26,648 bases of DNA from a virus (Duplodnaviria; Heunggongvirae; Uroviricota; Caudoviricetes), in IMG/VR virus record IMGVR_UViG_2531839149_000016; one strand, written 5' to 3'. Positions 22,223 to 23,436 of this stretch are shown one piece after another (the first letter of the stretch is position 1; each line of letters opens with the position of its first letter). The translations under genes were made by a program, and so were the position numbers. The notes beneath the pieces are model-generated. The model was not told the DNA's origin. It saw nothing but the letters and a program-made list of their open reading frames with translations, and ran no database searches.

Positions 22223-22783
22223 ATGGAAGTCAACAAAAAGCAGCTGGCTGACATTTTCGGCGCGAGTATCCGTACCATTCAGAACTGGCAGGAGCAGGGA
22301 ATGCCCGTTCTGCGGGGTGGTGGGAAGGGTAATGAGGTGCTTTATGATTCTGCCGCCGTCATAAAATGGTATGCCGAAAGGGATGCTGAAATTGAGAACG
22401 AAAAGCTGCGCCGGGAAGTTGAAGAACTGCGGCAGGCCAGCGAGACAGATCTCCAGCCAGGGACTATTGAGTACGAACGCCATCGACTTACGCGTGCGCA
22501 GGCCGACGCACAGGAGCTGAAAAATGCCAGAGACTCCGCTGAAGTGGTGGAAACCGCATTCTGTACTTTCGTGCTGTCGCGGATCGCAGGTGAAATTGCC
22601 AGTATTCTCGACGGGATCCCCCTGTCGGTGCAGCGGCGTTTTCCGGAACTGGAAAACCGACATGTTGATTTCCTGAAACGGGATATCATCAAAGCCATGA
22701 ACAAAGCAGCCGCGCTGGATGAACTGATAAAGCGCAGGCGCTCACTATCAACAAGGATGAGGTTAACTCAACAGTTGATTTAA
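22223..22783 (+). CDS. nu1: Terminase small subunit Nu1, C-terminally altered by a deletion junction near 22728
   Basis: Matches lambda Nu1 from MEVNKKQLADIFGASIRTIQNWQEQGMPVLRGGGKGNEVLYD… through …KAAALDELI, then diverges (KRRRSLSTRMRLTQQLI) where lambda has the terminal residues that contact gpA. Confidence 0.9.
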   Translation: MEVNKKQLADIFGASIRTIQNWQEQGMPVLRGGGKGNEVLYDSAAVIKWYAERDAEIENEKLRREVEELRQASETDLQPGTIEYERHRLTRAQADAQELKNARDSAEVVETAFCTFVLSRIAGEIASILDGIPLSVQRRFPELENRHVDFLKRDIIKAMNKAAALDELIKRRRSLSTRMRLTQQLI

Positions 22784-23436
22784 CCCTTACAAAACAATCA
22801 GGGACTGGCAATCGTTTTGTTTTACAGAACTCAGGTAATGCAGAACTACCGTTTTCTGTCAGGGTGTGGGGTTCCAGTACTCGACAAAACGTTTTTGAGG
22901 TTGGAACGTCTGCTGCGTATCTGTTTTATGCGCAAAAAACGTCAGCAGGCCAGTTGTTTGATGTAAATGGCGCTATTAATTGCACAACGCTGAATCAGTC
23001 ATCAGACCGCGACCTTAAAGACGATATTCTCGTTATCAGCGACGCGACGAAAGCAATCCGTAAAATGAACGGATACACCTACACGCTCAAGGAAAACGGA
23101 ATGCCTTATGCTGGCGTTATTGCACAGGAAGTAATGGAGGCGATACCAGAAGCTGTGGGATCGTTTACTCATTATGGTGAAGAGTTGCAAGGTCCGACCG
23201 TTGACGGCAACGAGCTACGCGAAGAAACTCGCTATCTTAATGTTGACTACTCCGCCGTGACGGGGTTACTTGTTCAGGTCGCCCGTGAAACAGATGATCG
23301 CGTTACCGCGCTGGAAGAGGAAAACACAACGTTACGTGAAAATCTGGCAACAGCAGGCACCCGGATCAGCACTCTGGAAAATCAGGTAAGCGAACTGGTT
23401 GCACTTGTCCGGCAGTTAACAGGAAGCGAACATTGA
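22723..23436 (+). pseudogene. stf: 3' fragment of a side tail-fibre gene encoding the C-terminal intramolecular-chaperone (peptidase S74-like) domain
   Basis: Open frame with no start codon begins at the junction with nu1; contains the SD(R)xLK catalytic motif (SDRDLKDDILVISD) and coiled-coil tail typical of auto-cleaving tail-fibre chaperone domains. Confidence 0.75.

Follow-up and report, generated by a model that had tools for sequence, protein, structure and literature searches.

A nu1-stf deletion joint in a lambda-like Escherichia coli prophage and a left break point common to many nu1 fusions

In the 26,648-nt stretch of viral DNA (Caudoviricetes) held as IMG/VR record IMGVR_UViG_2531839149_000016 (here called the window), nu1, the terminase small subunit gene of a lambda-like prophage, runs directly into the 3' end of a side-tail-fibre gene, stf. 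A sequence-only reading of this DNA took the joint for a deletion junction that fuses nu1 to the end of a fibre gene encoding a C-terminal chaperone domain, with all head and tail genes missing. The locus raises the question of how such a joint arose, whether it is real, and what the remnant could still do. We conclude that positions 22700-23436 are very probably a new junction, produced when a single large deletion struck a lambda-like prophage at att-lambda. We infer the single event and the manner of joining from what was observed directly, namely, the break points, the missing genes, an undeleted relative, and the distribution of the joint. The scar alone is routine and shows how a widespread att-lambda prophage, that of the 042 lineage, lost particle formation. 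Beyond it, the analysis adds a hybrid architecture of att-lambda and ydfJ-site prophages and, above all, a nucleotide-precise left break point common to many deletions.

The nu1-stf joint and the genes lost at it

The Nu1 open reading frame (ORF) at 22223-22783 (186 amino acids) follows lambda Nu1 up to residue 169 (...NKAAALDELI) and then continues as KRRRSLSTRMRLTQQLI to its stop codon. By tblastn, lambda Nu1 residues 1 to 169 align at 98.8% identity, with the last base at window position 22729, and the Phage_Nu1 Pfam match covers positions 1 to 164 of 164. The window thus keeps nu1 codons 1 to 169 (22223..22729, plus strand) and has lost the last 12; an out-of-frame reading of stf, 17 codons and a stop at 22730..22783, completes the 186-amino-acid Nu1' frame. 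DNA homology stops exactly at 22729 for lambda, for K-12 nohA, and for more than 20 lambda-like phages. Homology to S74-type stf genes begins at 22728, with identities of 95% to mEp460, 93% to Ayreon, 99% to the ydfJ-locus prophage of YD786, and 99.2% to the att-lambda prophage of RMDEC332. The parental sequences are nu1 ...GAACTGATA|CCGGGG and stf ...AACGGGGCTA|AAGCGC, and at the joint (22728..22729, plus strand) they have in common the bases TA only, which points to illegitimate joining rather than homologous recombination. Alignment with lambda and with the Qin prophage of K-12, which the sequence-only reading had asked for, therefore maps the break point to the nucleotide, and the Qin joint proves to be a different one.

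The left break lies 14 nt 5' of where the GTG start of A would be, so that A is wholly absent. The right break falls at about codon 859 of an S74-type stf gene of ~1094 codons, of which the last ~235 remain (22730..23436, plus strand). In the fibre frame, this part contains the Peptidase_S74 domain (PF13884, "chaperone of endosialidase," E = 2.5e-13) at about 23002-23157, with the Ser...Lys cleavage motif visible as SDRDLK in the translation. Since just the last ~235 fibre residues are left, no functional fibre is expected. A C-terminal tfa remnant (residues ~147 to 194; about 23473..23619, plus strand) follows, in which Pfam matches just the last 44 positions of Caudo_TAP (23476-23607); mEp460 and Ayreon, which are free-living phages, have the same remnant behind their S74 fibre gene.

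With every lambda late protein as the query, tblastn against the window found no A, W, B, C, D, E, FI, FII, Z, U, V, G, T, H, M, L, K, I, J, or lom. The annotation of the 99.9%-identical 042 prophage by the NCBI Prokaryotic Genome Annotation Pipeline (PGAP) likewise lists no lambda head or tail genes (A to J, lom). By Pfam and tblastn, the window does contain int, xis, an S24 repressor gene, Cro/YdaS-like and YdaT-like genes, O, P, Q, holin, lysozyme, and Rz genes, and cos-nu1. The junction, the chaperone domain, the loss of all head and tail genes, and the retention of cos, nu1, lysis, replication, and integration functions had all been proposed from the sequence, and all are borne out. One deletion would have taken A, W, B, C/Nu3, D, E, FI, FII, Z, U, V, G, T, H, M, L, K, I, J, lom, and, from its 5' end, 78% of stf. 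The remnant retains cos and a C-terminally altered Nu1 and has lost the means of making terminase, heads, or tails.

An undeleted relative was found with a chimeric probe made of the fibre sequence just 5' of the joint and the 042-type downstream arm. This probe matched RMDEC332 (NZ_CM177021.1) over its full length (100% coverage) with 99.8% identity. In this strain the prophage at att-lambda is nearly complete and collinear with the window element; it begins with ybhC, int, xis, exo, bet, gam, ..., O, P, ..., Q, lipocalin, ybgA, essD, rrrD, Rz, ynfO, cos, and nu1. Its late part runs through A, W, B, C, D, E, FI, FII, Z, U, V, G, T, H, M, L, K, I, J, lom, and an stf of 1094 amino acids, and its right part consists of a tfa remnant, a methyltransferase gene, a second tfa remnant, a diguanylate cyclase gene, attR, ybhB, and bioA. 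Window positions 14310-22729 align with it at 99.1% identity and positions 22728-23642 at 99.2%, and the gap between the two aligned blocks in RMDEC332 is 22,810 bp, or about 21.5 kb without IS621.

The joint is also widespread. A 161-nt probe centred on it had full matches in 189 of 5,426 complete E. coli genomes, 042 among them, and a 1.8-kb region matched in 187 genomes, where PGAP calls "DNA-packaging protein," "tail fiber domain-containing protein (incomplete)," and "tail fiber assembly protein (incomplete)" in a row. Across the assembly collection, 3,429 blocks encode exactly this 186-amino-acid Nu1' protein. The 042 copy is flanked by ybhC on one side and ybhB-bioA on the other and matches window positions 1-23642 at 99.9% identity. 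The nu1-stf scar is inherited in a sizeable E. coli lineage. These data also bear on whether an assembler mis-joined two prophage fragments at this point, an objection that the sequence-only reading had itself named. The window comes from a draft assembly (GCA_000354595.1) with another joint, 23642|23643, that is found nowhere else, and this would favour such a mis-join. However, the nu1-stf joint is nucleotide identical in 189 independently assembled complete genomes, including 042; it is thus not an assembly artefact, and the probability that we leave to a mis-join is close to nil.

Three points weigh against the account of one deletion inside an att-lambda prophage. One event cannot be proven over two nested ones. 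RMDEC332 is a relative (99.1 to 99.2% identity) and not the parent. Finally, the layout from ybhC to ydfJ, taken up below, rests on one draft contig from 2013, and part of the architecture could be assembly error. As a separate observation, the 042-type element of GCA_047338835.1 stops short to the left of Rz, next to genes for a trehalose-phosphatase and an ABC transporter, a further rearrangement at this prophage.

A left break point shared by independent nu1 deletions

Lambda Nu1 was searched against 5.8 billion proteins, and the best 120 cluster representatives were inspected. The visible range in this search is residues ~145 to 181; it is blind to joints 5' of residue ~145 and inside A, and joints close to the Nu1 C terminus that add only a short tail may have been lost in the clustering at 90% identity. 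About 40 proteins among these 120 representatives have Nu1 fused to unrelated tails. The last Nu1 residue kept is 169 for 25 distinct tails, as against 165 for 3, 168 for 4, 170 for 5, 173 for 2 (one a mere frameshift into A), and 176 for 2 (one of them K-12 NohA). About 32 independent fusions break at ...CTGATA|CCGGGG, 14 nt before the start of A. Their tails map to A, B, C, E, FI, Z/U, V, K, I, J, lom, stf, tfa, an integrase gene, and other non-lambda partners, and the deletions range in size from 53 bp to 21.7 kb. All of the mapped tails (52/52) are co-oriented with the late genes, so that the events are deletions and never inversions.

The same position appears in the DNA, where the parents of the fusion joints were approximated by lambda or RMDEC332. 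All nine joints viewed as DNA read ...GAACTGA-TA|; these are the window, ATCC 8739, YZ_2_2, and fusions to lom, U, E, tfa, B, and FI. The partner also has TA at the joint in 19 of 24 events, compared with a TA frequency of 3.0% among the dinucleotides of the lambda late region, and the base before TA shows no enrichment for a longer match. Other left ends also lie at TA, including those of Qin (...GAATATA|), DLP12 (...CCCTTA|T), and an internal deletion in A (...GGTTA|), and CP61 does likewise. In an even sample taken down the ranking of complete genomes, left ends fell at query positions 780, 780, 782, and 786, all of them this site when read by the TA, versus 564, 1038, and 1101. A divergent Nu1 (86% identity) also breaks after I169. 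The att-lambda family itself, with its methyltransferase arm, offers a further case in GCA_047311825.1: another deletion there starts at the same TA but ends at the Z/U boundary, so that one prophage lineage has used the site twice independently. Separately, exact matches to the lambda nu1 3' end in non-enteric GTDB representative genomes (Marinifilum, Bradyrhizobium, Pseudomonas, and others) are mostly small contigs or ~48.4-kb contigs identical to lambda, and these look like contamination with lambda control DNA.

The fixed left end, the scattered right ends, TA on both sides, and the restriction to deletions suggest a nick or break that preserves the cos-proximal end. Our tentative proposal, which we hold at somewhat less than even odds, is that this is a nucleotide-precise, one-directional deletion hot spot, made either by a TA-specific joining enzyme or by a nick or break at a specific site, with the cos-proximal end protected, and that it turns intact prophages into cos-nu1 remnants without terminase. 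The cos-proximal end would be preserved after a site-specific break and then joined by priming with its two terminal nucleotides; alternatively, a TA-specific enzyme may do the joining. No description of a deletion hot spot at nu1/A was found in the searchable literature.

Selection for the truncated protein would be a different explanation: a shortened Nu1 might act, for example, as a decoy that binds cosB of incoming phages of lambda specificity without being able to recruit the large terminase subunit. Many independent deletions do retain Nu1 to residue 168 to 170 and drop the ribosome-binding site of A, as selection would have it. However, selection acting from two sides would spread the break points over ~10 nt, whereas they peak at one codon and 9/9 DNA joints lie at one TA. 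The tails after residue 169 are arbitrary, at 5 to 140 amino acids, and the nu1 of RMDEC332 has an internal stop. Lambda plates normally on K-12, although this host carries the nu1 homologues nohA and nohD. Because selection does not account for single-nucleotide precision, we regard it as insufficient and quite improbable. A TA-target transposase of the IS630/Tc1-mariner-like kind was considered too, and a precise end joined to TA without longer homology, in the nine DNA joints and in 19/24 partners, is what it would give; but transposition does not predict that the mapped events are all deletions with zero inversions. Terminase mis-nicking at a pseudo-cosN is a weak candidate: TACCG|GGG resembles the TTACG|GGG of cosN, but the observed ends lie 3 nt further left.

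Several other candidates were rejected. There is no exact Chi in the window or near the joint that could serve as a RecBCD barrier, and a hairpin or palindrome at the hot spot finds no footing, as the DNA folds no better than shuffled sequence (z = -0.2). The GajA nickase of Gabija has its lambda site at about 2.4 kb, and a nick at its motif TNNNS^RGGNNA would fall 3 nt to the right of the end seen here. Integrases of helper-embedded satellites have late-gene targets in A, B, C, and E, not in nu1, and the Fur boxes reported at nohA are 233 nt 5' of nu1, not at its 3' end. Quasi-sites of Pin/Gin-type invertases, secondary sites of lambda Int, IS5/IS10 targets, the gyrase consensus, type I-E CRISPR, and CCNGG restriction would each fail on register, site uniqueness, or partner sequences.

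If the hot spot is true, the grounding of prophages in E. coli would be partly directed and not random decay. It would also account for the retention of cos and a nu1 homologue by many cryptic lambdoid prophages, of which Qin and the elements of ATCC 8739 and 042 were examined here, and a lambda lysogen with a counter-selectable marker among its late genes would be expected to reproduce it in the laboratory.

The right end of the window, excision, and packaging

The left end of the prophage is that of an att-lambda element. The lambda attL core (GCTTTTTTATACTAA) with the P' arm (1331..1345, plus strand) adjoins the host gene ybhC (1-1284, minus strand) and is the sole att core of the window even when two mismatches are allowed; in 042-type prophages, a second copy lies between the cyclase gene and ybhB. 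No attR was found in the window; its right-hand flank consists of ydfJ. Homology to the 042 type ends at 23642, 23 nt past the tfa stop, and from 23643 to the window end the sequence matches, at 100% identity, the right arm carried by prophages that occupy ydfJ, where Qin also sits. At this switch (23642..23643, plus strand), where att-lambda prophage sequence of the 042 type gives way to such a right arm, the two parental types have no mutual homology, and all 12 ydfJ-locus sequences aligned there have a different tfa end. Contig AQCM01000019.1 (139.6 kb, GCA_000354595.1, E. coli MP021552.12), reached through an exact match to the protein of the S74 ORF, is 100% identical over window positions 12864-26648 and continues beyond ydfJ with ydfI, ydfZ, rspR, ydfG, and dcp. 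The 23642|23643 joint is absent from 5,426 complete genomes, from GTDB representatives, and from metagenome contigs (exact-pattern scans for the last two). None of 22 loci compared has it, and the ORF spanning it has no database record.

Some strains carry both prophages. In YD786, for example, they lie ~865 kb apart in inverted orientation and are 98 to 99% identical over 22728-23565. Given two prophages in opposite orientation at this distance, the window layout from ybhC to ydfJ leaves two readings, a chimeric contig or an inverted chromosome segment of ~0.8 Mb. Both need an unsampled ydfJ-site prophage with a 042-type tfa end. A homologous crossover within 22728-23642 could not be placed from single-nucleotide polymorphisms (SNPs), as the window alternates 042-type and ydfJ-type alleles. 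At most of the seven "ydfJ-type" SNP sites in this interval, the allele is also present in mEp460 or Ayreon, which argues that the 042 clade is derived there.

We put at even odds that the layout is real and that recombination across the ~915-bp stf'/tfa' segment of the oppositely oriented prophages inverted ~0.8 Mb including the terminus. The existence of YD786-like strains with both prophages in the required arrangement speaks for this, as does the position of 23642|23643 midway in the 139.6-kb contig. The switch also falls at a module boundary used by free phages; homology to Ayreon stops at 23642 too, which suggests that an unsampled ydfJ-site prophage already bore such a tfa end. On the other hand, the joint is found in none of the genome and contig sets scanned, the aligned ydfJ-locus sequences (12/12) have another tfa end, and an inversion of this kind would leave very unequal replichores, as judged from K-12 coordinates. 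The other reading, in which an assembler walked through the stf'/tfa' repeat of two prophages in one genome, has in our estimate not quite an even chance. It fits a layout unique to one 2013 draft assembly and a near-identical repeat of ~0.9 kb, the classic place for a mis-join; but the known parents would then yield a ydfJ-type tfa end at 23566-23642, whereas the att-lambda type is found. If the adjacency of ybhC and ydfJ, 24 kb apart in the window, is real, it would represent a rare and strongly asymmetric prophage-mediated inversion across the replication terminus.

These findings change what the element might still do. The sequence-only reading had supposed that it can probably excise and be induced. 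Whether by inversion or by chimera, attL is paired with a foreign right end, so that, as far as its sequence predicts, the window copy cannot be excised by lambda Int/Xis; the proposal fails for this copy, with its single att core and a right end from a ydfJ-site prophage. Inducibility is unsupported and uncertain, as no N homologue was found by tblastn or among the small ORFs left of the immunity region (6950-7458). Packaging in trans by a helper phage keeps an experimental precedent, in that defective O157 Sakai prophages without head or terminase genes are packaged via co-resident prophages (PMC2669165). Without excision, however, a helper terminase could at most start in situ packaging at cos, rightwards into nu1'-stf'-ydfJ.

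The cos site (22004..22200, plus strand, upstream of nu1) had been called intact. Its parts are present: cosQ (GGGTCCT, 22004-22010), the cohesive-end 12-mer GGGCGGCGACCT (22034-22045), and the R3, I1, R2, and R1 sites of cosB, to about 22200. The alignment with lambda is ungapped, and base pairs 56 and 59 of R3, both critical, agree with it. At lambda +14 (window position 22047), however, both the window and 042 have T for G, a change that is absent from lambda, PhiR42_1, 2H10, and K-12 Qin and that hits the CG beside the bottom-strand cosN nick. The two CG dinucleotides flanking the cosN nicks are described as highly conserved (Feiss et al., PMC4669245). Because the +14 change lies in such a conserved CG, the description of cos as intact would seem to hold only approximately. 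The remaining differences from lambda, in R3 and elsewhere, recur in plaque-forming PhiR42_1 or in K-12 Qin. Just left of cosQ lies a Fur-box-like sequence, GATAATTATTATCATTTT (21981-21999), which matches a Fur site reported 233 nt 5' of K-12 nohA (PMC2189734).

Other features and comparison with known prophages

Beside attL lie int (1419-2489, minus strand; 356 amino acids, 98.9% identical to lambda Int) and xis (2467-2685, minus strand; Pfam Exc). Genes for a HipA_2 kinase and a DUF3037 protein (7458-9034, minus strand) stand between the repressor gene and the pL side. This pair occupies the place of rexAB in lambda and is matched by PDC-M66A/B, a candidate defence pair of PADLOC (E about 1e-15). 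To the right of the switch, the AT-rich arm typical of ydfJ prophages (23643..25364, plus strand) contains a 65-amino-acid ORF (24451-24648, minus strand) and further tfa 3' remnants at 24217-24312 and 24958-25029, and it ends at ydfJ (25365..26648, plus strand; 427 amino acids), the host gene flanking Qin-site prophages. In all, the stretch from stf' to ydfJ contains three C-terminal tfa remnants, all in the same orientation; in the 042-type arm there are two, one on each side of the methyltransferase gene, like tfaD-ybcY-tfaX in DLP12. The window has no RNA family match in Rfam. It has zero exact Chi sites, and one-mismatch Chi-like octamers number 33, versus about 15 expected from shuffles.

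The element shares with lambda-like att-lambda prophages an Int/Xis pair beside attL and ybhC and a cos of lambda specificity followed by nu1; attR is missing from the window. It is not a satellite or phage-inducible chromosomal island, as it has O/P, Q, holin, lysozyme, and Rz genes and the annotation of the 042 copy lists no AlpA or primase. The prophages of 042 and 188 other complete genomes are 99.9% identical over 1-23642 and have the same nu1-stf joint and the same T at cosN +14. Unlike the window, they continue with the methyltransferase gene, a tfa remnant, the diguanylate cyclase gene, attR, and ybhB, so that both att sites are present; 042 has in addition an IS2 in an AraC-like gene. 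RMDEC332 resembles the window in integration site, int/xis, and the nin-Q-lysis-cos-nu1 region, and it has the stf-tfa'-methyltransferase arm of the 042 type. It differs in keeping A to J, lom, and full-length stf and in its immunity region, which has N and cIII, and it has defects of its own, an IS621 that splits E and an internal stop in nu1. The defective prophages of O157 Sakai excise and circularise (Asadulghani et al., 2009; PMC2669165), whereas the window element has no attR.

Close parallels to the scar are found in K-12. Qin (nohA-stfQ'-tfaQ) is likewise a lambdoid remnant with ynfO/ydfO, cos, and a nu1 joined directly to the 3' part of an stf gene. Its cos-nu1 region is 96.7% identical over 21500-22729 and 98.1% over 22003-22729, and its site, ydfJ, is the right flank of the window. 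However, the Qin joint lies 22 nt further 3' (...GAATATA, ...PGLLSEY), 9 nt into A, and leads into a different, non-S74 fibre gene with 320 codons kept; Qin also sits at ydfJ with its own int remnant and not at att-lambda. As both its left and its right break points differ, Qin represents an event independent of the window joint. DLP12 (nohD-aaaD'-tfaD-ybcY'-tfaX) has also kept cos and nu1 and lost the head-tail block, and the layout of its right arm, tfa, an S-adenosylmethionine-dependent methyltransferase gene on the opposite strand, and a tfa fragment, is that of the 042 type. In contrast to the window, it has an intact nu1, keeps 308 nt of A, is joined into tfa (tfaD), and is integrated at argU. 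Taken together, with the morphogenetic block absent and the early, lysis, and cos-nu1 regions kept, the scar is ordinary prophage decay, and the element that bears it, already present in many annotated genomes, is a cryptic lambdoid prophage of the Qin/DLP12 kind.

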